Source of the DNA: Candidatus Limnocylindria bacterium
GTDB taxonomy: Bacteria; Chloroflexota; Limnocylindria; QHBO01
Reading direction: 5' to 3'
Length of the DNA: 64,000 nt
NCBI GenBank assembly: GCA_046262115.1
Contig: JBHENJ010000037.1
Location: 22,993-86,992, forward strand
The translations under genes were made by a program, and so were the position numbers. Below, in pieces: positions 8,273 to 42,732 of this stretch. Positions within the stretch are counted from its first letter, which is position 1. Each line of letters starts with the position of its first letter. A model generated the notes under the pieces. The model did no database searches. It saw only the letters and a list, made by a program, of their open reading frames with translations, and was not told where the DNA came from.

Positions 8273-8337
8273 GTGCTCATCGGTCCTCCGATTCGGCAAC
8301 GAGAAGGCGGCGCGTTGGTGGAACGCGCCGCCTGCCG

Positions 8338-8440
8338 ATCGGTACCCGACTCCCTGCGCTGGCATTACCCAGATCAGGTGTGAGGGTCAGCGGAAGATCC
8401 GCACTCTCAGCGCTTGTCGCGCTCCCCTGTCGTCTTCAGT
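8338..8440 (-). promoter_or_regulatory. TPP (thiamine pyrophosphate) riboswitch
   Basis: Minus-strand read: ACAGGGGAGCGC...GCGCUGAGAGUGCGGAUCUUCCGCUGACCCUCACACCUGAUCUGGGUAAUGCCAGCGCAGGGAGUCGGG contains the CUGAGA, ACCCU, ACCUGAUCUGGGUAAUGCCAGCG and AGGGA hallmarks of the THI element. Confidence 0.85.
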
Positions 8441-18557: not shown

Positions 18558-19244
18558 TCAGAGCGGGAGCTTCTGGATGACGCTCAGCGTCGGCCGCACG
18601 GCGCGCGGCGCGGGCTGCGCGATCGGCAGACGGATCCACGCGTCGCCCGCCGGACCGGGCCGATAGCGCGCGGACAGGCGCCGCGCCGAGATCGCTTCCA
18701 TGCCGAGCTCTCCGAGCGCCTCGGCGACGGTCATGCCCTCCTCGCGGAACCCGCGGCCCACGATCGTGGTCTCGCCCCTGCGGACGAGCGCTCGAAGGCG
18801 GTCGCGGCGCTCGACGAACGGTCGGGACGCGAGCGTCTGGCCCTCGAGATAGAGCAGGTCCGTCGCGACGAATGCGGCGCGGCCGGCGGTGACGCCGCGG
18901 ACCGCCAGACGGCGGCGCAGGAGCTCCGGGTCGGGACGGCCGTCGCCGTCCAGCACGAGGAGCGTCCCATCCATGACCACCGCGTCGCCGCGAAGCTGCT
19001 CGCCCAGCGAGCCGAGCTCGGGGAAGCTTTCCAGGAGGTCGGTGAGCTGCTCGCTCTGGAGCCGGACCTGGCGAGACTCGACGAAGGGCAGGGCGCGCAC
19101 GCCAGGCCACCACGGCTCGAAGTAGTACCCCGGGTCATCGAACGGACCGACGCCATCGGTCGCCTGCATCGGTCGCACGTGGAGCGGCAGCCGGCCGCCC
19201 GAGTCGGGTGTGTCGATCGAGAGCGGAAGCTGCACGGCCCCCAC
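18558..19244 (-). CDS. ATP-dependent DNA ligase-fold protein lacking catalytic lysine (LigC/LigD-ligase-domain-like, probably inactive)
   Basis: Nucleotidyltransferase-domain homology (motifs III, IIIa, IV, V recognisable), but motif I KxDG reads EPWWPGVRAL and motif V Lys is Arg; no OB domain; 17 nt downstream of ku. Confidence 0.6.
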   Translation of the reverse strand: MGAVQLPLSIDTPDSGGRLPLHVRPMQATDGVGPFDDPGYYFEPWWPGVRALPFVESRQVRLQSEQLTDLLESFPELGSLGEQLRGDAVVMDGTLLVLDGDGRPDPELLRRRLAVRGVTAGRAAFVATDLLYLEGQTLASRPFVERRDRLRALVRRGETTIVGRGFREEGMTVAEALGELGMEAISARRLSARYRPGPAGDAWIRLPIAQPAPRAVRPTLSVIQKLPL

Positions 19245-19261: not shown

Positions 19262-20104
19262 TCAGGCGGTCTTGCGCGCCGCTCGCCGCTGGGTGGCGGG
19301 CTCCTCGCCCGCACCCTTCCGGCGCGACTCTCGTGCGGCCGCCACGCTCGCCTCGAGCGCCTGCATCAGGTCGGTGAGCTTGGTCGCCGGCGCGCGCTCG
19401 ACGCGTACGGGCGCCTGCCCCTCGACCTTGGCCTGGATGACGTTCATCAGCGCCTGCCGGTATTCGTCGTGGTACTGGTCGATCTGGAACTCGCCTGTCA
19501 TGGATTCCACGAGCTGCTCGGCCATCTTGCGCTCCGCCGGCTTGAACTCGTGCTCCTCCTCGGGAAGGTCCAGGTCGCGCACGGCACGGATCTCGTCCGG
19601 CCAGTGGAGCGTGGTGAGCAGGAGCGTCTTGTCGAACGGGTTGAGCGACGCCAGCTGCTCGCGATCCTTGAGGACGATCTTGGCGATCGCGGTCCTGCCG
19701 GTGTCATCGAGCACCGATTTCAGCAGGTAGAACGCCTTGCGGCCGATGGGCTCCGGCTCGAGGTAGTAGGCCTGCTTGACGAACTGCACGCCCTGCGTGT
19801 CGCGCCTGGCCTCGGTGAAGAGCTCGATATCGATGGCACGCATCGTCTTGAGCGGCAGCGAGTCGAGGTCCTCGTCGGTGACCACCACGTACTGGCCCTT
19901 CGACCACTCGTAGCCCTTCACCGTGTCGGTCCGGCTGATGACCTCGTCGTCGTACGGACAGTAGGTCTTCATCTGGATCCGGTTCAGACATTTGGCGTGC
20001 AGCATGTTGAAGCCGATGCCGCCGCTTTCGGTGGCGAGGTACAGCTTGACCGGGATCGTCACCAGCCCGAACTGGATCGCGCCCCGCCACATCGGACGTG
20101 CCAT
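19262..20104 (-). CDS. ku: Ku (NHEJ DNA end-binding protein)
   Basis: Canonical start MARPMWRGAIQFGLVTIPVKLY, Ku core and C-terminal basic tail. Confidence 0.9.
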   Translation of the reverse strand: MARPMWRGAIQFGLVTIPVKLYLATESGGIGFNMLHAKCLNRIQMKTYCPYDDEVISRTDTVKGYEWSKGQYVVVTDEDLDSLPLKTMRAIDIELFTEARRDTQGVQFVKQAYYLEPEPIGRKAFYLLKSVLDDTGRTAIAKIVLKDREQLASLNPFDKTLLLTTLHWPDEIRAVRDLDLPEEEHEFKPAERKMAEQLVESMTGEFQIDQYHDEYRQALMNVIQAKVEGQAPVRVERAPATKLTDLMQALEASVAAARESRRKGAGEEPATQRRAARKTA

Positions 20105-20713: not shown

Positions 20714-21199
20714 CTAAATCACCCGGTCGCCTTCCGGTCCCGTGACCGCGACGAGCGCCGACGCCACCTCGCCACCGGCGCGGCTCAGTCGGTATCGGTG
20801 CTCGATCTCGAGCGCCTTCGACAGCATCCTGCTCACCGGGCAGTACTTCATCGCGGAGAGTTCGACCGCGCGACGCACCGCTTCCGCCTCGATCTCGCCT
20901 TCGACCTGGTGCTCGACGACGATGTGGAGGAAGACTGACGGGGTCTCGTCCGCCTTCTGAGCGGTGATCGCGACGCCGTAGCGTGCCGGCGCCTGTCGTT
21001 TCTTGCCGAGGATGCTGACCACGTCGACCGCGGTGCACGACGCGAGGGCGGCGAGCACGAGCTCGGTCGGGCGCGCGGCGCTGTCGCCGCCGGTGGGCGG
21101 GAGCACGTCGGCAACGACCTCGTGACCCGACGCGGTGCGTGACTGGACGCGCGCGCCGCCGTCGAGCGAGACACTCGCCTCGAGCCGGACCTCAGCCAT
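20714..21199 (-). CDS. OsmC/Ohr family peroxiredoxin-like protein
   Basis: OsmC fold signature (ELVLAALASCTAVD... AMKYCPVS). Confidence 0.8.
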   Translation of the reverse strand: MAEVRLEASVSLDGGARVQSRTASGHEVVADVLPPTGGDSAARPTELVLAALASCTAVDVVSILGKKRQAPARYGVAITAQKADETPSVFLHIVVEHQVEGEIEAEAVRRAVELSAMKYCPVSRMLSKALEIEHRYRLSRAGGEVASALVAVTGPEGDRVI

Positions 21200-22916
21200 C
21201 AGCCGCGATCGTATCCTCGCGGATCCCCTTCGTCGCACCGGCGACGCCCTCGGCCAGCAGCACGCGCCCCCCGGCCAGGGACTCGTACAACGCCTCGACG
21301 CGCTCGAGCGTGTCGATCTCGTCGGGCGTCTTGTCGTCGCGAATGCGCACGATGCGCGGAAAACGCATCGCGAAGCCGCTCTTGTGGCGGTTGCTGCGCT
21401 GGATCAGGTCGAAGGCGATCTCGACGACGACCTCCGGCGCGACGCTGCGGAAGCGCCCGAAGTCACGGATCGTGATCGCCTGGAAGTGCTCGGTGTACGC
21501 AGTGATCTCCGCATCTGTCAGCCCGGTGTAGGCCTTGCCTATCGTGACGAGCCGGTCGTTGGCGGTGTCCCGCACGGCGAACGTGTAGTCGGAGAGCACC
21601 GCCCGCCGCTTGCCGTGGCCCCATTCCACGCCGACCACCACACAGTCCAGGGTTGCGAGCGCGCGCTTCAGCTTCAGCCAGCCGAGCCCGCGGCGCCCTG
21701 GCTGATACACCGACGACGGGTTCTTGATCATCAGCCCCTCGTTGCGCCGGGCCTGCGCGTCGTCGAACAACCGGTCGACCTCCTCCGCCGAGCGCGCCTG
21801 GACGAGGTGCGTGTAGAGCAGCCGCTCGCCGCTGCACTCCGGGAGCTCGAGCGCCTCCAGGGCAGCCCGGCGTTCTCTCAGCGGCTCGTCCAGCAGGTCG
21901 CGTCCGTCGAGGTGCAGCACGTCGAACGCCACGAAGACGACCGGTATCCGCTCCTGGAGCGCGGCGTCCGGCGCGACGCGTCCAAGCCGCTGCTGGAGGT
22001 CCTTGAACGAAAGCGCCGCACCTTCGCGGTATGCGAGCAGCTCACCGTCCAGAACGATCTCGCGGCCGAGCGCGGCTCCCGCGGCTGCTGCCTCGGGGAA
22101 TGAGCGCGTCACCTCCTTGAGATCTCGACTGAAGAGGCTCGCCCGTCCGGCGGCGGCGTGCAGTTGGGCACGCACGCCGTCGTACTTGTCCTCGACCCAC
22201 GCCTCGGCGCCGACACGCCGCATGACCTCGTCCGCATCCTCGACCGGCGAGGCGAGCATGAACCGGAGCGGCCTGCCGAGCTGGAGCCGCGCCTCGTCGA
22301 GCCGCCCGGCGCGGGCAAACGTCGCGGCGACACCGATGTCGCCGACGACCATCACCGCCCGCCGGAGCTCGTCGAGCGCCACGTCGAACGCGGCCGCCAC
22401 GGCCTCCTCCAGCAGCCCCTCGCGCAGCCCGATGCGCAGGTCGCGCTGGAGGATCTTGGCGATGTAGCGCGCCTCGCCTCCGCTCGCCCGGCCGAACAGC
22501 GTCGCGAGGCGCGCCGCGCGCTGCTCCCCGCTCGACGACCGCGATATCTCCTCAAAGGCGTCGTGCACGTCCGCCAGTGTCAGCGGCCGCGAGTCCGGCG
22601 TCCGACCCTCCAGGAGCTCGCCGGCCACGTCGCCCAGATCCGAGTGGCGGAGGTAGCTGTCGCCGAATCGTTCGACGTCGACGCCGGCGAGCCCGGTCAG
22701 CGCCGCCGACACCTGGACCCAGCCCAGCCCGAGCCGGTCATCGGCGCCCGGAAGCGGCCTCCCTGCCAGGAAGGTGCAGGCGATCCGCAGGTCCTCGTCG
22801 CGAAGAGCACGGAGGTAGTCGGCCAGGACCGCGCGCTTGCGGAGCTTGCTGGTCGTCGCGGCGGCCGCATCGGCCGCAACCACGAAGTCGGCGAGGGCGG
22901 CCGATCGGGCGGTCAC
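21192..22916 (-). CDS. ligB: ATP-dependent DNA ligase (LigB/Lig I type: DBD-NTase-OB)
   Basis: Motif I EDKYDGVRAQ, motif V/VI present, 574 aa. Confidence 0.85.
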   Translation of the reverse strand: MTARSAALADFVVAADAAAATTSKLRKRAVLADYLRALRDEDLRIACTFLAGRPLPGADDRLGLGWVQVSAALTGLAGVDVERFGDSYLRHSDLGDVAGELLEGRTPDSRPLTLADVHDAFEEISRSSSGEQRAARLATLFGRASGGEARYIAKILQRDLRIGLREGLLEEAVAAAFDVALDELRRAVMVVGDIGVAATFARAGRLDEARLQLGRPLRFMLASPVEDADEVMRRVGAEAWVEDKYDGVRAQLHAAAGRASLFSRDLKEVTRSFPEAAAAGAALGREIVLDGELLAYREGAALSFKDLQQRLGRVAPDAALQERIPVVFVAFDVLHLDGRDLLDEPLRERRAALEALELPECSGERLLYTHLVQARSAEEVDRLFDDAQARRNEGLMIKNPSSVYQPGRRGLGWLKLKRALATLDCVVVGVEWGHGKRRAVLSDYTFAVRDTANDRLVTIGKAYTGLTDAEITAYTEHFQAITIRDFGRFRSVAPEVVVEIAFDLIQRSNRHKSGFAMRFPRIVRIRDDKTPDEIDTLERVEALYESLAGGRVLLAEGVAGATKGIREDTIAADG

Positions 22917-23861: not shown

Positions 23862-23938
23862 GCCCCCATCGTCTAGAGGCCCAGGACGCCACCCTTTCAA
23901 GGTGGAGATCAGGGGTTCGAATCCCCTTGGGGGCACCA
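23862..23938 (+). tRNA. tRNA-Glu (anticodon UUC), CCA encoded
   Basis: Cloverleaf: acceptor GCCCCCA/TGGGGGC, anticodon stem CCACC/GGTGG, loop CTTTCAA, T-loop TTCGAAT, 3' ACCA. Confidence 0.9.
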
Positions 23939-35199: not shown

Positions 35200-35349
35200 G
35201 CTACCGACGATCGCGGCCGCCACGTCGCGTCCGACGTACCGGTAGTGCCACGGCTCGTAGTCGTATCCGTCATGACTCGCTGCATGCACCCACGATCGAT
35301 CGCGGCGGCGGCCGCTCGACACGTCCGGACGACCCGATTTGAAGCTCAA
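35200..35349 (-). pseudogene. remnant of M15-family D-Ala-D-Ala carboxypeptidase (VanY-like) C-terminus
   Basis: Short reading frame ...SWVHAASHDGYDYEPWHYRYVG... matches conserved C-terminal YEPWHYRYVG motif of peptidase M15B; no upstream catalytic domain. Confidence 0.3.
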
Positions 35350-35516
35350 CGTTTGCGCGAGGCGGTGCGCGATCGGCGTACGTCCAATGCCCGCTCCGGC
35401 GCTCGACCGATACGTCGAACGTCACATCCTCGGTCGCGTCAGATCGCCCGCATCCGGTTGTTGCGCGGGTTGTGCTCGACGTCCGCGAGACCCAGCGCCT
35501 CGAGAAGCGGCGGCAT

Positions 35517-35591
35517 TGGAGCCGAAGGTGGGATTCGAACCCACGACCGACGGTTTACGAAACCGTTGCTCTACCCCTGAGCTACTTCGGC
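35517..35591 (-). tRNA. tRNA-Thr (anticodon CGU)
   Basis: Minus-strand cloverleaf GCCGAAG...TTCGTAA loop...GTGGGTTCGAATCCCAC...CTTCGGC-T-CCA. Confidence 0.85.
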
Positions 35592-35661
35592 CTCGGCGCG
35601 AGGCCGGATTCTAGCAGGGGCCGCCGTCCCGGCAGCTGGTCGAGCGAGGACTGAGTCGCGG

Positions 35662-36810
35662 TCAGCGCGACGCGAGCGCTGCGCCGAGCGAGATGGTGCG
35701 CGCAAGGCGGGCCGCGGCCGCCCCGAGCAGCGCCTGAGTCGACCTCATTGCGTCATCGAGCGACATCGGCCGGTCCGCGATCGGTTGGACGAGCGCGAAC
35801 CCGGCGTCGTCGAGCGCCGCGGCGCCCTCACCGAGCGCGCCGCACAACAGGACCACCGGCGTGCCGCCCACGAGCGCCAGGACCCCGGCCGCGGTCTTGC
35901 CGCTCAGCGTGGATGCGTCAGCGCGGCCCTCGCCGGTGATGACCAGGTCGCTGGTCGCCAGCGCCTCACCGAGACCGATGACCTCCGCCACGACCTCGAA
36001 CCCCGGCCGGAGCACTCCGTGCGTGAAGGCGAGCAGGCCGAACACCGTCCCTCCCGCGGCGCCCGAGCCGGGCACGTCCGCGACGCGGCGCCCGTTCATG
36101 GCCGCCACGACGGCAGCGAGCCGGCCGAGACTTGCATCGAGCTCGGCCACGGCCGCGGGATCGGCGCCCTTCTGCGGACCGTACACGGCCGATGCGCCGT
36201 GCGGGCCGCACAGCGGGTTGGTGACATCGGTCGCGATCACGAGCTCGACCGATGCCAGTCGCGGGTCGAGCCCGGAAGCGTCGACGCGCTCCAGACCAGC
36301 GAGCGCGGCGCCGCCCTCCGGCAGCTCGTGACCTTCGGCGTCGAGAAAGCGCATGCCCAGAGCCGCGAGCAGCCCGGTGCCGCCGTCGTTCGTCGCGGAG
36401 CCTCCGACACCGATCGTGATCCGGTCGACGCCGGCATCGAGCGCCGCGCGGACCAGCATGCCGGTCCCGCGGGTCGTCGTGCGCCGCGGATCCCGCTCTT
36501 CGGGCCGCAGCATCGCCAGGCCGCTGGCCGCGGCGAGCTCCACGAACGCGGCTCGCCCGCCCTCGAGCACGAGCCACTCCGCGGAGAGCGGCCGGCCCAG
36601 TGGGTCGAGCGCGGCGGCCGTTCGGAGCTCGGCGTCGTCGAGGAGCGCGGCCCGGATCGCGCGGAGCGTGCCCTCGCCGCCATCGGCCATCGGGCGGCGG
36701 ATCAGCTCGTCGTCGCCGCGAACGCCGCTCCAGCCATCCGCGATCGCGTCCGCGGCGTGCACCGAGTCGAGCGCACCGCCGAACGAATCGGGCGCGACGA
36801 CGACCCTCAT
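35662..36810 (-). CDS. glxK: glycerate kinase
   Basis: Glycerate kinase family motifs (MRVVVAPDSFGG, GGSATNDGGTGLLAALG); start at MRVVVAP. Confidence 0.85.
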   Translation of the reverse strand: MRVVVAPDSFGGALDSVHAADAIADGWSGVRGDDELIRRPMADGGEGTLRAIRAALLDDAELRTAAALDPLGRPLSAEWLVLEGGRAAFVELAAASGLAMLRPEERDPRRTTTRGTGMLVRAALDAGVDRITIGVGGSATNDGGTGLLAALGMRFLDAEGHELPEGGAALAGLERVDASGLDPRLASVELVIATDVTNPLCGPHGASAVYGPQKGADPAAVAELDASLGRLAAVVAAMNGRRVADVPGSGAAGGTVFGLLAFTHGVLRPGFEVVAEVIGLGEALATSDLVITGEGRADASTLSGKTAAGVLALVGGTPVVLLCGALGEGAAALDDAGFALVQPIADRPMSLDDAMRSTQALLGAAAARLARTISLGAALASR

Positions 36811-36820
36811 GCCGCCGCCG

Positions 36821-37438
36821 TCAGCCTTCGGGCATCGAGTCGCGATCGCGGCGGCCGAACATGACGTCCAGCATCCCGGGCTGGCGCACGCGGTCGATGG
36901 CGATGCGCACCCACTCCTCATTGCGCTCGCCCGCGAGATAGCGCGAGTTGGCGTGCTTGGCGAGGCTGGCGCGGAATCCCTGTGCGCGCCAGATCGCGAA
37001 CTGCGGACCGAGCGGGGCGCGGACCGCGGGTGTCACCCGCAGCACGTCGCTCTCCGCGACGATCGCCTCGAGCAGCCGCCGGCGCTCGAGGAGCGGGATG
37101 TCCAGCAGCTCCTGGCCGTCGACGACGAGCAGGTCGAGCGCGATGAGCAACGGACGCCCATCCGTGGCGCCCTCCGCGGGAATCCAGCTCTGCGCCCACA
37201 CCGCGTCGATCACGGCGTCATCGGCCTGCACGCCTGCACGCAGTGCGGCGATCGCATCCGGGAAGGAGCGGTCGACGCGCGCGCCGCCCGGATCGGTCAG
37301 ATGAACGGCACCGCCGCGGACGAAGCCGAGCAGCCGCTCACCGTTCCAGTACGGCTCGAAGAGCCACTCGGCACCGGTGCGGACGGATTTGGCCCTGCCC
37401 GCGTACTGCGGAAGGAGCACCCGCCCGGCCACGGTCAT
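36821..37438 (-). CDS. ATP-dependent DNA ligase-fold protein lacking catalytic lysine (paralog of 18558..19244)
   Basis: Motif I reads EPYWNGERLL (K->Y, D->N); motifs III (LDLLVVDG), V (LAKHANSRYLAG) recognisable; no OB domain; ATGA-coupled to DEAD-box helicase gene. Confidence 0.6.
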   Translation of the reverse strand: MTVAGRVLLPQYAGRAKSVRTGAEWLFEPYWNGERLLGFVRGGAVHLTDPGGARVDRSFPDAIAALRAGVQADDAVIDAVWAQSWIPAEGATDGRPLLIALDLLVVDGQELLDIPLLERRRLLEAIVAESDVLRVTPAVRAPLGPQFAIWRAQGFRASLAKHANSRYLAGERNEEWVRIAIDRVRQPGMLDVMFGRRDRDSMPEG

Positions 37439-38712
37439 GCCACGTCGTAGAGCTTCAGGCGTCCCTGCTCGATGTCCGCGTCCAGGCTGGCCATCATCTC
37501 CTGCCACGGCTGGATGTCCCACTCCGCGACGAAGGTGATGGCGGTGCCTTCCTTGCCGGCGCGGCCAGTGCGGCCGATGCGGTGCACGTACGTCTCCGCG
37601 TCCTCCGGGATGTCGTAGTTCAGGACGTACGGAAGGTCGGTGATGTCCAGGCCGCGCGACGCGACGTTCGTGGCGATGAGGAGCTGGAACTTGCCGGCCT
37701 TGAAGTCGGCGAGCGTCCGGTCGCGCTCTCGCTGCGAGAGGCCGCCGTGGAGCGCCGCCGCGCGCTTGCCGCGCCCTTTGAGGCTCGCGGCCAAGCGGTC
37801 GACGCCGATCTGGGTGTGCCGGAAGACGAGCAGCCGATCGAAACCGAAGTCCTCGACCAGCTCGATCAGCGCCGCGACCTTATCCCGCTCCGCGACCTCG
37901 TAGTAGAGCTGCTTCACGGTGTCGACCGGCTGGAGCATGGGCGCGACGCTGATGTGATCGGCGTCGTGGCGCATGAATCGGTCGCAGATGCGGAGGATGG
38001 CGTACGGCATCGTGGCGCTGAAGAGCGCCGTCTGCCGATGGCGAGGGCACCGCGCCAGGATCGTCTCGACGTCGACGATGAAGCCCATGTCGAGCATGCG
38101 ATCGGCCTCGTCGAGGATGACGACCGATACGTGCGCGAGGTCGAGCTCGCGACGCCGGATGAGATCGAGGACGCGCCCCGGCGTGCCGACCACCATCTGT
38201 GCCCCGGCGGCGAGGCCGCGGATCTGGCGGTCCATGCTCGAGCCGCCGTAGATGGCGACCGGTCGCACGTTGCGGAACTGACCGAGCTTGGCGATCTCGT
38301 CGGTGACCTGCACGCACAGCTCGCGCGTCGGAGTGAGGATGAGCGCCTGAACGTGGCGGGCGGCGGGGTCGATGTGCTGCACGATGGGAATTCCGAAGGC
38401 GGCGGTCTTGCCCGTGCCCGTCTGCGCCTGTCCGATCAGGTCGTGCCCCGCCTGGAGCACCGGGATCGAACGCGCCTGGACCTCGGTCGGCTCGGTGTAG
38501 CCCATCCGCTCGAGGGCGCGCGCGATGGTCACCGGGATCGGAATCTCGCCGAACCGATGGGCCGGGAAGGCGGCGACCGCTGCGGTCAGCTCGTCTGCGT
38601 CCGGGGCTGGTGCGTTGCCTGCGCCGTTGGTGTGGTCTGGTCGTTGGGCGGGAGCGGAGCGGCCCCTGCGCCTTGGTGGCCCTGTGGGGGCCCGGCGATG
38701 TGTTTCTAGCAA
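37435..38712 (-). CDS. DEAD-box ATP-dependent RNA helicase
   Basis: Q motif, AQTGTGKT, DEAD, SAT, HRIGRTGRAG motifs. Confidence 0.85.
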   Translation of the reverse strand: MLETHRRAPTGPPRRRGRSAPAQRPDHTNGAGNAPAPDADELTAAVAAFPAHRFGEIPIPVTIARALERMGYTEPTEVQARSIPVLQAGHDLIGQAQTGTGKTAAFGIPIVQHIDPAARHVQALILTPTRELCVQVTDEIAKLGQFRNVRPVAIYGGSSMDRQIRGLAAGAQMVVGTPGRVLDLIRRRELDLAHVSVVILDEADRMLDMGFIVDVETILARCPRHRQTALFSATMPYAILRICDRFMRHDADHISVAPMLQPVDTVKQLYYEVAERDKVAALIELVEDFGFDRLLVFRHTQIGVDRLAASLKGRGKRAAALHGGLSQRERDRTLADFKAGKFQLLIATNVASRGLDITDLPYVLNYDIPEDAETYVHRIGRTGRAGKEGTAITFVAEWDIQPWQEMMASLDADIEQGRLKLYDVA

Positions 38713-38774
38713 ATCTTCTCCATTACTTCGCGCACCGTACCACGCGAAGGGCCGATCGCGCGAGCGGCGTGCGC

Positions 38775-39530
38775 TCAGTCGAGCGTCAGCAGGAGGGCCA
38801 TGATCGCCACGCCGCCGAGCACGCCGGCGAGCTGGAGGACGGAACGGAGCGCCTCGGGCTCCTTGTGGAGCTCGGGGAAGAGATCGGTGCTGGCGATGTA
38901 GATGAAGCCGCCGGCGGTGATCGGCAGCAACACCCGCTCGAAGCCGGCCGTGGCCGAGGCGACAACCAGGGTCACGCCAGCTCCCAGCACTGCCGCCAGC
39001 GCGCTGAGCAGGTTAAGCGCGAGCGCGCGCCGCGTGCCGAGGCCGGCGTGGATCAGGATCCCGAAGTCGCCGAGCTCCTGCGGGATCTCGTGGAGCGCGA
39101 CGGCGAGCGCGGTCGCGACCCCGAGCCCCGGCGACAGGAGGAATGCGCCGGCGACGATCCCGCCGTCGATGAAGTTGTGGAGCGCATCGCCCACGAGGTT
39201 GGTCGCAGCCACGGGATGCAGCACGCGCGGGTCCTCGGACGGTACGTGCGCGTGGTGCCAGTGCAGGATCTTCTCGAGGACGAAGAACAGCACCATCCCG
39301 CCCAGCAAGCCGAACGACGCGAACAGGTCGAGCCCGGACTCGGACTCGGCGAGCTCGGGGATGAGATGGAGGAACGCGTCGCCGAGAAGGGCGCCGGCGG
39401 CGAACGCGATCAGCGTGGGAAGGACCCGGCGCAGCGTGCCCGGCCGCAGGACGAGCGTGATCGCACCGACGAGCGAGACAAGGCTGATCCCCAGGACCGC
39501 GACGAGGGTGGATGCCCAGACGGTCAGCAT
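38775..39530 (-). CDS. ZIP-family zinc/iron permease (ZupT-like)
   Basis: ZIP signature HEIPQELGDF, His-rich loop; start at MLTVWAS. Confidence 0.8.
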   Translation of the reverse strand: MLTVWASTLVAVLGISLVSLVGAITLVLRPGTLRRVLPTLIAFAAGALLGDAFLHLIPELAESESGLDLFASFGLLGGMVLFFVLEKILHWHHAHVPSEDPRVLHPVAATNLVGDALHNFIDGGIVAGAFLLSPGLGVATALAVALHEIPQELGDFGILIHAGLGTRRALALNLLSALAAVLGAGVTLVVASATAGFERVLLPITAGGFIYIASTDLFPELHKEPEALRSVLQLAGVLGGVAIMALLLTLD

Positions 39531-39570
39531 GCCGTCCGGTTCCGCGGGCGAGCGCGCGTCGGATTGCCCC

Positions 39571-40668
39571 TCAGAAGAGGGGTGCGGTGTGCCCCGCCGC
39601 CGCTGCCGCCTCTTCGGCCCGGCTCTCGCGGCCGTCCCCGACCGGCTGGTACTGCCCCTCGTCGCCGGGCACCGCGGGCGGCGCATCCTCGTACCCGTTC
39701 GGATGCGCCTGCTTCCACGCCCAGGCGTCAGCGATCATCTCGTCGAGCTTCGAGACGCGTGGCTGCCAGCCGAGCTCGCGTCGCGCTCGACGGGAGCTCG
39801 CCACGAGCACGGGCGGGTCACCCATGCGGCGCCGAACGACGCGGGCCGGGATCGCGCGGCCGGTAACGCGGCGCGCCGCCTCGATGACCTCCTTGACGCT
39901 GAACCCGGCGGCAGAGCCGAGGTTGTAGACCTCGAGACTCGCTTCGCCCTCGCCGGTGGCGTCGAGCGCGAGCAGGTGCGCCTGCCCGAGGTCGCGGACG
40001 TGGATGAAGTCGCGGATGCACGAGCCGTCCGGGGTCGGGTAGTCCTGCCCGTAGATCTGGACGTGACCGCTCTCGCCGGCCGCGACGCGCAGCACCAGCG
40101 GAATGAGGTGCGTCTCGGGGCGGTGGTCCTCCCCGTTGCGCTCGGTCGCGCCGGCGCAGTTGAAGTACCGAAGACTGATGCAGCGGAACCCGTGCGCGGC
40201 CGCGAACCAGCGCATCGCGCCCTCGAAGGCGAGCTTGGTCGCGCCGTACGGGTTGATGGGGTCGGTGCGATCGGACTCCGCGATCGGCACGCGGCGCGGC
40301 TCGCCGTACACCGCTGCGGTCGAGCTGAACACGAGACGGGTGACGCCGGTGTCACGCATGGCCTCGAGGAGGCTCACGCCGGCCGAGACGTTGTTGCGGT
40401 AATAAGCCGCCGGGTCGTTCATCGACTCCGCGACGAGCGAGCGAGCGGCGCTGTGCAGGACGGCATCGATGCGCTCGCCGCGCAGGATGTGCGCAATCCG
40501 GTAACGGTCCGCCATCTCCCCGACGACCAGGCGCGCGCCGGATAGATCGGCCTTCGGGTGTCCGGTGCTGAGGTTGTCGAGGACGACGACCTCATGGCCC
40601 GCTTCGACGAGGGACTCGACGGTGGTTGAGCCGACGTAGCCCGCTCCGCCCACGACGAGGATCCGCAA
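39571..40668 (-). CDS. galE: UDP-glucose 4-epimerase
   Basis: N-terminal GGAGYVGS Rossmann, YxxxK SDR motif. Confidence 0.9.
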   Translation of the reverse strand: MRILVVGGAGYVGSTTVESLVEAGHEVVVLDNLSTGHPKADLSGARLVVGEMADRYRIAHILRGERIDAVLHSAARSLVAESMNDPAAYYRNNVSAGVSLLEAMRDTGVTRLVFSSTAAVYGEPRRVPIAESDRTDPINPYGATKLAFEGAMRWFAAAHGFRCISLRYFNCAGATERNGEDHRPETHLIPLVLRVAAGESGHVQIYGQDYPTPDGSCIRDFIHVRDLGQAHLLALDATGEGEASLEVYNLGSAAGFSVKEVIEAARRVTGRAIPARVVRRRMGDPPVLVASSRRARRELGWQPRVSKLDEMIADAWAWKQAHPNGYEDAPPAVPGDEGQYQPVGDGRESRAEEAAAAAGHTAPLF

Positions 40669-40762
40669 TAGGGCCTCCCTTGTGCACGGAACGAGGCTAT
40701 CCCGCCGGTCGAGGTTGGTTCGGGCGCACGATTGTAGCAGCCACTCGCCGGCTGCAACCCGA

Positions 40763-42172
40763 CTACTTCGTCGGCTCGCCGGCCTCGGTCGATGGCGCCA
40801 ACCTTCCCGAAGCGGAAAGGTCTTCGCGGGCGATCGCGAGCAGCTCGTCGCGACGGTTGCGCGTGGGATCCTCCATCACGACGTCGAGCAGCCGATGCAG
40901 CAGCCTCCCGATGCGCGGGCCGGCCTCGAGCCCCAGCTCGTCCATCAAGACTTTCCCGTCGATGGCGAGCTGGCGCGTCTCGACCGCTGCGTCGCGCATC
41001 GCCACGTCGATGCGCCGCTCCAGCTCGGAGAGGCCGCCGCGCGGGGGCTCCGCGACGCCTGACGCGGCGTTGTCTGCGCGCCGCAACGCGAAGAGGTCGG
41101 CGAGCTGGTCGCTGCCGACGCGGCGGACGAAACGGCGCACGGCCGCATCGGTCCAATCGGGTGCATAGGCGAACATGTGGTGCCGAACCAGGTGCGTGAC
41201 ACGTTCGATCTCGGCGCGCGAGTACCGAAACCGCTCGAGGATGCCGCGCGCGAGGTCCGCGCCCACGACCTCGTGGCCGACGAACCGATCCTCGACCAGA
41301 GTCTGCGGCTTTCCGAGGTCGTGCAGCAGACCCGCTAGCCGCAACACCGGGTCGTCGGCGGGCAGCGCGTCCATCGTTCGCAGCGAGTGGTCGAGCGCAT
41401 CGCCCGGGAGCGCCTTGGCCTGCAGGACGCCGCGCAGCGCGGCGACCTCCGGCAGCAGCTCGCCCAGGAGCCGCAGCTCCTCCATCAGCGCGAACGCGAC
41501 CGATGGGGGCGGCTCACGCGAGCCGAGGATGCGGCCTAGCTCGTCGCGCACGCGCTCCCCGGAGAGCAGGCGCGCGTCGGCGGCGCGGCGGGCGATCGCC
41601 TCGCGCGTCGCGCTCTCCAGACGCAGGCCGAGCCGGAACGCGAAGCGGACCGCGCGCAGGAGGCGGAGCGCGTCCTCGGAGAGGCGTCGATCCGGGTCGC
41701 CGACCGCGCGCAGGATGCCCGCCCGCAGGTCATCTCGCCCGCCGTGCGAGTCGATCAGCTCCCCGTCCCGCGCCACGCCGCCGTCGGTCGCGTCGCCACG
41801 CCCGGTCGGCGACCATGCCATGGCGTTGATCGTGAAGTCGCGGCGCTGGAGATCCTGGAGCAGACCCGCGCCGAAGCGGACGACGTCGGGGCGGCGGTGA
41901 TCGGCGTACGTGCCCTCGCTCCGGAACGGTGTGACCTGGAGGACGACGCCGTTACGCCGCACCGTGACGGTTCCGAATCGGTTCTCGAGCGAGGACCCCG
42001 CGAAGAGCTCCAGGGTGCGCTCGGGATCGGCCGCCGTCGCGACGTCCCAATCCCCCGGCCGCTCGCCGCGCACGAGGTCGCGCACGCACCCGCCGACCAG
42101 GACAGCCTCGTGCCCGGCGTCGATCAGCACGTCGAGCGCCTCCGACACGGGCGCCGGCAACTCCAGCCGCAT
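40763..42172 (-). CDS. cca: CCA tRNA nucleotidyltransferase (Pol-beta NT + HD domain)
   Basis: LVGGCVRDLV head motif, HD domain (HDLGK). Confidence 0.8.
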   Translation of the reverse strand: MRLELPAPVSEALDVLIDAGHEAVLVGGCVRDLVRGERPGDWDVATAADPERTLELFAGSSLENRFGTVTVRRNGVVLQVTPFRSEGTYADHRRPDVVRFGAGLLQDLQRRDFTINAMAWSPTGRGDATDGGVARDGELIDSHGGRDDLRAGILRAVGDPDRRLSEDALRLLRAVRFAFRLGLRLESATREAIARRAADARLLSGERVRDELGRILGSREPPPSVAFALMEELRLLGELLPEVAALRGVLQAKALPGDALDHSLRTMDALPADDPVLRLAGLLHDLGKPQTLVEDRFVGHEVVGADLARGILERFRYSRAEIERVTHLVRHHMFAYAPDWTDAAVRRFVRRVGSDQLADLFALRRADNAASGVAEPPRGGLSELERRIDVAMRDAAVETRQLAIDGKVLMDELGLEAGPRIGRLLHRLLDVVMEDPTRNRRDELLAIAREDLSASGRLAPSTEAGEPTK

Positions 42173-42192
42173 CGGCGCCCGGCGATCGGCGC

Positions 42193-42732
42193 TCAGTCGC
42201 TCCGCGGCAGAGCCTCCTGCCCGGCGAGGACGAGATAGTTGCGCCACGGGTCGTTGTGCTCGTCTGCGAGGTACGACCCGAACAGGTAGGCGTGGTCGGC
42301 GCGCGGCACGCGCGGCTCGCGGAGGAGCTTCATGCGCGCGTCAGACAGCGTCTTGGACCCCTTCCGGTGGTTGCACACCCGACAGGCCGCGACCAGGTTG
42401 TCCCAGTCATGCCGCCCACCGCGATGCTTGGGCACGACGTGGTCAAGCGTGAGGTCGCGCGTCGATTGCCCGCAGTACTGGCAGGTGTGCCGGTCGCGGG
42501 TGAAGACCTCGCGGCGCGTGAGACGGACGCGCGGGCGGGGCCGCTTCACCAGGTAGACCAGGCGGATGACCGAGGGCGCGTGGAGGCTGCGCGACGGCGT
42601 GTGGATGATCAGGTGGTTGAGCTCGAGCACCTCGGCCTTCTCCGCGCCGAGCAGATTGAACGCACGGCGGATGTCGCACACGTTGAGTGGCTCGTAATTC
42701 GAGTTGAGCACTAGTACCGGTGCGTTCGTCAC
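42193..42732 (-). CDS. HNH endonuclease family protein
   Basis: CQYCG...LDHVVP...H...[11 protein letters not shown]/zinc motif. Confidence 0.7.

Follow-up and report, generated by a model that had tools for sequence, protein, structure and literature searches.

A conserved ligase-fold pseudoenzyme in Limnocylindria and its lineage-specific coupling to a DEAD-box helicase gene

What does a ligase domain do once it has lost the residues of the ligase active site? This question is raised by a locus in Candidatus Limnocylindria (Chloroflexota), a member of a class of soil and freshwater bacteria, in which a gene for a stand-alone ligase-like domain overlaps the stop codon of a gene for a DEAD-box RNA helicase. 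The locus lies in a 64,000-nucleotide stretch of contig JBHENJ010000037.1 (hereafter, the window; GC content ~70-72%), and the three genes at 36.8-38.7 kb are all on the minus strand and tightly packed. We refer to the 205-residue ligase-like protein (36821-37438) as LIGL2 and to a second, Ku-adjacent lysine-less copy in the window (18558-19244) as LIGL1. Here, we report that LIGL2 is encoded by a selectively maintained pseudoenzyme gene that is conserved across the class Limnocylindria, and that its coupling to the helicase gene is lineage-specific but conserved. The features on which the analysis centers are the following:

36821-37438, minus strand: LIGL2 ligase-like gene, 205 amino acids plus stop, a stand-alone LigD-type nucleotidyltransferase (NTase)-fold domain (PF01068, 34.5 bits)
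37334-37357, minus strand: degenerate motif I of LIGL2, E28-P-Y-W-N-G-E-R35 (alignments and profile against Mycobacterium tuberculosis LigD, 6nhx)
36824-36898, minus strand: C-terminal tail of LIGL2, residues 181-205, pattern R.R.PG....F.GRR.R (alignment of 14 orthologues)
37435-38712, minus strand: DEAD-box RNA helicase gene, 425 amino acids (Pfam DEAD 165.4 bits, Helicase_C 99.8 bits)
37435-37438, minus strand: ATGA junction at which the LIGL2 start codon overlaps the helicase stop codon (direct sequence reading)

LIGL2 has the NTase fold of LigD-type ATP-dependent ligases. The protein scores above the Pfam threshold for the ATP-dependent DNA ligase adenylation domain (PF01068; cut-off 26.2 bits), and in NCBIfam it is matched best by models of LigD-type ligases, which at 54-67 bits remain far under their cut-offs and are covered in the NTase part alone. 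An AlphaFold2 model built from 33 homologues is confident (pLDDT 87.8, pTM 0.83); the tail (residues 181-205) is modeled with low confidence (pLDDT 45-68) and includes a short predicted helix at residues 189-193. When this model was compared with the PDB using Foldseek, the top 50 matches were all ATP-dependent DNA ligases, the best of them being NTase domains, and the closest in sequence was M. tuberculosis LigD (28% identity; Foldseek E 1e-13; profile E 1e-16). The closest sequence relatives of LIGL2, with which it has the NTase fold in common, are the ligase domain of LigD (Rv0938; PDB 1VS0, 6NHX, 6NHZ) and stand-alone LigC, and LIGL2 shares with LigD the E-x-(K)-W-x-G-x-R frame, the FxxxDLLxLDG/PLxERR segment and the SRYxPG loop. 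LIGL2 is 100% identical to the NCBI entry "hypothetical protein ABR509_04285" from a Candidatus Limnocylindria (Chloroflexota) metagenome-assembled genome (MAG). A longer reading frame starting at GTG 37522 (233 amino acids) was considered and rejected, because the orthologues and the NCBI record start at an ATG or GTG that overlaps the helicase stop codon.

How much of the ligase machinery is left within this fold? A preliminary description, made from the window sequence, had read motif I as EPYWNGERLL with K to Y and D to N substitutions, and alignment to M. tuberculosis LigD bears out this reading: opposite fEG-K481-WDGYR of LigD (K481M in 6nhx), Tyr30 replaces the adenylylated Lys and Asn32 replaces the Asp, while Glu, Gly and Arg are kept. 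Motifs III and V, which the same description had called recognisable, are present as degenerate remnants, but their key residues are gone; VIDAVW is found at the position of LDGE (motif III), WVRIA at that of WVKDK (motif V) and, similarly, LTDPGG at that of LRSRSG (motif Ia). Altogether, the losses in LIGL2 comprise Lys and Asp in motif I, Ser-Arg in motif Ia, Glu in motif III and both Lys in motif V. Moreover, no match to the OB (oligonucleotide/oligosaccharide-binding) domain model PF04679 was found in LIGL2, and the protein stops 25 residues past motif V, after which the glycerate kinase gene follows. Also unlike LigD, LIGL2 has no polymerase or phosphoesterase domains and is not encoded beside Ku. 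The profile of the LIGL2 family differs from LigD as follows:

Motif I: family profile vEPlWsGeR, M. tuberculosis LigD fEG-K481-WDGYR
Motif Ia: family profile LvdedG, M. tuberculosis LigD LRSRSG
Motif III: family profile vvdgvl, M. tuberculosis LigD VVLDGEA
Motif V: family profile waias, M. tuberculosis LigD WVKDK

With the Lys and the OB domain absent and the key residues of motifs Ia, III and V lost, LIGL2 does not qualify as a ligase and, judged by its sequence, ligase chemistry appears to be excluded. What has been retained is a distinct set of positions. E28, P29, W31, G33 and R35 are invariant across the family alignments, and the family keeps the E-P-x-W-x-G-x-R frame, a PLLERRRLL helix, WRAQGF and (K/R)xxNSRYxPG, in addition to a conserved motif IV Lys/Arg, which is Arg in some members. 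LIGL2 keeps half of the adenosine-contacting residues and has lost the DNA-contacting motif Ia Arg. The family proteins are acidic (median pI 5.1-5.6), and this acidity together with the lost motif Ia Arg argues against canonical binding of nicks or nucleic acids.

Is LIGL2 the product of a single degenerate gene or a member of a family? A sequence database search with LIGL2 returned 81 clusters, and a scan of GTDB with one genome per species identified 402 species genomes that encode a relative. The best 80 of these 402 species matches (the 80 species loci in the following) are all from Limnocylindria-type MAGs and all lie in one syntenic block; loci of relatives carry L numbers (L001-L175), and the genes in the fetched loci were annotated by tblastn with reference proteins. 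An exhaustive profile search gave 113 clusters (50% identity) at E<=1e-30, nearly all of 200-250 amino acids, and 33 aligned family members with 30-40% identity have 19 invariant columns. None of the 72 family members with a readable motif in the first search has Lys at the motif I position; instead, the residue varies freely (L, V, A, Q, D, H, Y, E, M, F), and the Asp position is likewise variable. Among 93 motif-bearing cluster representatives, three have K at this position, and the two of them that were examined, P0347 and P0348, are complete ligases that include an OB domain; P0081, which also has K there, is a true ligase with an OB domain.

The free variation at these two positions bears on the idea that LIGL2 is still an enzyme, which would use an alternative nucleophile (e.g. 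the conserved Lys in AKHANSRY) or an OB domain provided in trans. The conserved Lys/Arg at motif IV and the retained motif I Glu and Arg fit this idea, and pseudoenzymes whose catalytic residues have migrated are known from other families (review, PMC10211241). However, neither the nucleophile nor the Asp position is constrained, Glu of motif III and the two Lys of motif V are missing, the motif IV residue is Arg in some members, and no OB-domain gene is found nearby. We consider residual catalysis very unlikely.

Equally, LIGL2 could be a decaying pseudogene, i.e. a functionless remnant of a LigD-type ligase. This would account for the loss of the catalytic residues and of the OB domain, and for the fact that LIGL2 evolves much faster than the adjoining helicase (49-78% versus 84-95% identity). 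By contrast, the open reading frame (ORF) is intact in every complete related locus, with relatives in ~400 species, the invariant columns persist at low overall identity, the start-stop overlap with the helicase gene is conserved, and the fold is predicted with confidence. In addition, Nei-Gojobori ratios of nonsynonymous to synonymous substitutions (dN/dS) were 0.12-0.19 for unsaturated pairs in the LIGL2 family and 0.26-0.33 for LIGL2 and its nearest relatives (0.26-0.29 against the closest orthologues), pointing to purifying selection. The adjacent glycerate kinase gave a similar range of 0.15-0.25, and the helicase gave 0.01-0.06. Values for distant pairs (0.4-0.9) were disregarded because their synonymous sites are saturated (proportion of synonymous differences, pS, 0.45-0.6). 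Because of the dN/dS values and the conservation, we reject the pseudogene explanation as extremely improbable. The preliminary description had proposed a conserved non-catalytic family rather than a random pseudogene, and had named a dN/dS near 1 as the sign of the latter; in the LIGL2 family the range is 0.12-0.33, and together with the 81 clusters and the 402 species genomes this supports the proposal of a family.

We next turn to the helicase. The LIGL2 ATG (37438-37436) and the helicase TGA (37437-37435) form a 4-nt ATGA overlap, as had been read previously, and this arrangement is consistent with translational coupling of helicase and LIGL2. The helicase gene starts at TTG 38712, with GGAG 6 nt upstream, which is the only possible start ahead of the Q motif. 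The helicase core is intact, with the motifs GQAQTGTGKT, DEAD, SAT and HRIGRTGR readable in the translation, and is preceded by an Arg-rich N-terminal extension of ~50 residues; there is no C-terminal RNA-binding domain. Its best NCBIfam matches, the models for CshA (444 bits; cut-off 646) and DbpA (391 bits; cut-off 524; model positions 5-370 of 460 covered), are both below the equivalog cut-offs. The helicase is a minimal DEAD-box core and does not qualify as a DbpA or CshA equivalog. Two antisense ORFs on the plus strand (36353-37450 and 37243-38709) were rejected as genes, because homology and selection are on the minus strand; these ORFs are long because of the 72% GC content.

Among the species loci and metagenome contigs together, a helicase gene lies directly upstream of the LIGL2 orthologue in 18 loci (the window, L003, L008-L018, L088, L089, L091, L173/L174 and L175). 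These loci are confined to the closest sub-lineage of the window, in which the identity of the ligase-like proteins is 36-78%. The 4-nt overlap is present in 12 of the 18, as ATGA in the window, L009-L012, L014, L015 and L017 and as GTGA in L003, L088, L089 and L173/L174, and gaps of 7-183 nt are found in the others. Thus, the pairing claimed in the preliminary description recurs but stops at the boundary of this sub-lineage. The helicase-linked LIGL2 proteins have in common AKHANSRY and a C-terminal tail (R.P.....LF.G.R.R), and the rest of the family is without the tail. As a possible marker of the pairing on the helicase side, a C-terminal L-x-L-Y was considered and rejected, since it occurs with or without a ligase-like gene downstream. 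Separately, most of the helicase-linked orthologues (L009-L018, ~residues 95-125) have a ~30-residue acidic insert (SAAERWSEALADEAG..DLPEDGPDP) between motifs III and IIIa; proteins of the non-helicase group have a longer insert there, and the sub-lineage of the window has none, having lost it.

Based on these data, we favor, with moderate confidence, an explanation in which LIGL2 is a non-catalytic ligase-derived adaptor that in this lineage is co-produced with a minimal DEAD-box helicase. LIGL2 derives from the NTase domain of a LigD-type ligase that has lost its ligase chemistry. Having lost the catalytic residues and the OB domain, LIGL2 should be unable to seal nicks and is most likely to act through binding. 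Helicase and LIGL2 would be made together by termination-reinitiation, and the acidic LIGL2 would serve the helicase as a partner or adaptor without catalytic activity; our preference for such a role comes from the start-stop overlap, which is conserved, and from the tail, which is specific to the lineage. The parts of this explanation differ in strength: that the gene is both non-catalytic and conserved is highly probable, while the partnership with the helicase, which is suggested by the gene arrangement, is tentative and, taken alone, doubtful.

DEAD-box helicases that rely on non-enzymatic partners are known, e.g. RhlB with RNase E, eIF4A with eIF4G and Dbp5 with Gle1. In these systems, as in the locus described here, a minimal DEAD-box core without a substrate-targeting domain of its own is found together with a separately encoded binding partner; they differ from it in that the partnership proposed here is deduced from gene arrangement. 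We know of no DEAD-box partner protein with a ligase NTase fold. More specifically, LIGL2 and the minimal DEAD-box helicase could form a two-protein machine in which LIGL2 is a dedicated, non-catalytic subunit and its dead pocket reads a nucleotide-like feature. In this scenario, which we regard as unlikely, the pocket would recognise a 5'-phosphate, an adenylylated or nicotinamide adenine dinucleotide (NAD)-capped end, or a free adenine nucleotide, and in this way would target or gate the helicase. In its broader form, the scenario would have Limnocylindria turning the LigD ligase domain into a binding module twice, once for Ku-dependent end joining and once for RNA metabolism.

Several observations weigh against a helicase partner. 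No helicase gene is present upstream in 69 of the 80 species loci, and the close relatives L001/L002 have a ZIP gene upstream and no helicase, even though the L001 ligase-like protein has the tail. Conversely, helicase orthologues in L090 (23-1285; 77% identity) and L092 (20-1264; 55% identity), both ending in L-x-L-Y as well, are followed by unrelated genes, for a putative secreted protein and a metallo-beta-lactamase (MBL)-fold hydrolase-like ORF, indicating that the helicase also occurs apart from the ligase-like gene. Taken together, the broken pairing in L001/L002, L090 and L092 implies that the pairing is not obligatory. Moreover, no fusion to a helicase was found among the best 150 LIGL2-family cluster representatives, and the oldest and most persistent neighbours of LIGL2 are sugar-metabolism genes rather than nucleic-acid genes.

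What, then, are these neighbours? Class-wide, the order of the block is CCA-adding enzyme, GalE, a variable slot, the ligase-like gene, a gene for a protein resembling GpgS (glucosyl-3-phosphoglycerate synthase), a Usp-GpgS fusion, glycerate kinase and an HhH-GPD glycosylase. At the 80 species loci, the gene next upstream is most often GalE (41 loci), followed by an opposite-strand major facilitator superfamily (MFS) gene (21) and the DEAD-box helicase gene (11). Downstream, the neighbour in 65 of the 80 is the GpgS-like gene, which in 42 loci has the same orientation and lies no more than 300 nt away and in 23 is more distant; glycerate kinase follows the ligase-like gene within the block at almost every related locus. 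With 379.6 bits against a cut-off of 262, the Usp-GpgS fusion qualifies as a true GpgS. In the window, both glycosyltransferase (GT) genes are missing, as they are in L088, L089, L173 and L175, and as a result of this loss the ligase-like gene abuts the glycerate kinase gene directly, 10 nt apart and probably in the same operon; the position directly upstream of glycerate kinase had been noted before and is confirmed here. The window genes that flank the pair are the following:

35662-36810, minus strand: glycerate kinase gene, beginning 10 nt past the LIGL2 stop (Pfam Gly_kinase 425 bits; TIGR00045 399 bits)
38775-39686, minus strand: ZIP/ZupT-like metal transporter gene, upstream of the helicase gene (NCBIfam ZupT E 8e-16); the ZIP-DEAD-LIGL gene order is also found in L174
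35517-35591, minus strand: tRNA-Thr(CGT), directly downstream of glycerate kinase, closing the gene string

This neighbourhood is the basis of the most serious alternative, to which we give appreciable weight as the less probable reading: the helicase adjacency would be incidental, LIGL2 would be independent of the helicase, and the helicase gene would have landed in the variable upstream slot. LIGL2 would then be a regulator that binds nucleotides or proteins and whose role is tied to the cluster of GpgS-like, Usp-GpgS and glycerate kinase genes or, alternatively, would function in DNA repair with LIGL1, the LigB-type ligase of the window or the HhH-GPD glycosylase that closes the block. The persistence of the GpgS-like and glycerate kinase genes downstream, the identity of the Usp-GT2 gene as a true GpgS, the lineage-dependent content of the upstream slot (GalE, opposite-strand MFS, ZIP or DEAD) and the broken pairing in L001, L090 and L092 all fit this alternative, as do the retained motif I Glu and Arg and motif IV Lys/Arg, which are adenosine contacts in real ligases. 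However, the 4-nt overlap is kept while the identity of the ligase-like proteins falls to 36-58%, which exceeds chance adjacency, and the lineage of the window lost both GT genes while the ligase-like gene stayed. As for a role in the GpgS cluster, other genes sit between the ligase-like and GpgS-like genes in 23 loci, and we know of no biochemical link between the NTase fold and glucosylglycerate synthesis.

Two side observations concern the block itself. The GpgS-like protein (433-456 amino acids) is degenerate and reaches just 28-49 bits to the GpgS model; the three-gene run after the ligase-like gene (GpgS-like, Usp-Usp-GpgS and glycerate kinase), present at 1707-6115 in L003, at 6722-11212 in L005 and in most of L008-L087, resembles a cluster of the glucosylglycerate type in which one glycosyltransferase may be dead. 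Furthermore, L008, L027, L024, L034, L041, L044 and L080 are labelled Steroidobacteraceae, Anaerolineaceae, Actinomycetes or Methylomirabilota, yet have the Limnocylindria-type block; probably, the taxon labels of these seven MAG records are wrong or the bins are contaminated.

Could the helicase and LIGL2 belong to a known system? To our knowledge, the only bacterial helicase-ligase operon is the ligase-associated DNA-damage-response operon, in which an Lhr-type DExH helicase is encoded together with a ligase and a nuclease/phosphoesterase, and which therefore also pairs a superfamily 2 (SF2) helicase with an ATP-dependent-ligase-fold gene. However, both window proteins fail the corresponding models, the helicase with 47 bits to TIGR04121 (cut-off 850) and LIGL2 with 26 bits to TIGR04120 (cut-off 400). 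Moreover, LIGL2 is non-catalytic, the helicase is of the DEAD-box type and there is no exonuclease or PdeM partner. The PADLOC and PHROGs models gave no match for LIGL1 or LIGL2 and only generic SF2 matches for the helicase; a defence-system or phage origin of the LIGL proteins was rejected for lack of such matches. Domain fusions were also considered as a hint to function and gave none, since the long matches are wrong-frame read-throughs or true ligases. The sole exception is P0339 (339 amino acids), in which a LigD 3'-phosphoesterase domain is fused to a lysine-less NTase (FEPDLGGAR) without an OB domain, and which is the sister of the LIGL2 family in a neighbor-joining (NJ) tree (74% bootstrap). 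The suggestion in the preliminary description that the pair could be an RNA/DNA repair or processing module has found no evidence so far, given the acidic protein, the lost motif Ia Arg, and the absence of fusions and of defence or phage matches.

Is LIGL2 unique within the window? As proposed previously, a second, Ku-linked lysine-less ligase-fold copy is present, and the two are 28% identical (E 3e-14). Ku is ~17 kb from LIGL2 and adjoins LIGL1 instead, in a region with these features:

18558-19244, minus strand: LIGL1, 228 amino acids, lysine-less OB-less NTase with FEPWWPGVR, 17 nt downstream of Ku (PF01068, 33.2 bits)
19262-20104, minus strand: Ku gene, start taken at MARPMWRG inside a longer ORF (TIGR02772 Ku_bact 268.8 bits; Pfam Ku 131.9 bits)
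21192-22916, minus strand: full-length LigB-type ATP-dependent DNA ligase with an intact motif I, KYDGVR (Pfam DNA_ligase_A_N, A_M, A_C)
23862-23938, plus strand: tRNA-Glu(TTC), near the Ku/ligase region

The LigB-type ligase has DNA-binding, NTase and OB domains. LIGL1, too, belongs to a conserved lysine-less family, as had been supposed: there are at least 441 matches, EPWWPG is present in 115 of the best 120, and the proteins have a median of zero lysines. The adjacency of Ku and the lysine-less NTase, with a LigB-type ligase 2-4 kb away, recurs in L170-L172, and no LigD-type catalytic ligase adjoins Ku in the four loci examined. Ku was found in none of the 80 related LIGL2 loci. The two families are alike in that their members have ~200-235 amino acids, are OB-less, lysine-less and acidic, occur in Limnocylindria-type genomes only and have fixed synteny. 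They differ in that LIGL1 has W and P as fixed replacements of the motif I Lys and Asp, while the replacements in LIGL2 vary freely, and in that LIGL1 is linked to Ku and the LigB-type ligase while LIGL2 is linked to the helicase or glycerate kinase. In a bootstrapped NJ tree, each lysine-less family forms a clade, and the branching does not distinguish a shared degenerate ancestor from separate origins.

Catalytically dead kinases, phosphatases and ubiquitin ligases have been studied extensively as regulators. A conserved, catalytically dead and OB-less derivative of the ATP-dependent DNA ligase domain is apparently undescribed: our full-text literature search found no description of lysine-less or inactive LigD-like proteins, pseudo-ligases or helicase/ligase-like operons, and there was none in ligase reviews. 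Here, a whole bacterial class keeps two families of dead ligase domains, one with Ku and the other at a fixed locus. If a binding function is found, this would represent a new role for the ligase/capping-enzyme fold, would bear on Ku-dependent repair in Limnocylindria and could reveal a new kind of DEAD-box cofactor. Even otherwise, such genes should not carry the annotations "LigD" or "ATP-dependent DNA ligase"; these labels, which automated annotation (JGI names) gives to some members of both lysine-less families, are misleading.

Finally, we scanned the window for other elements. An Rfam scan found no RNA element within or adjoining the helicase/LIGL2 pair, and a promoter and terminator scan of 35300-42400, which is not informative for this organism, found nothing. 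Elsewhere in the window, Rfam identified one element:

8334-8438, minus strand: thiamine pyrophosphate (TPP) riboswitch (Rfam RF00059, 68 bits; gathering score 54.3)

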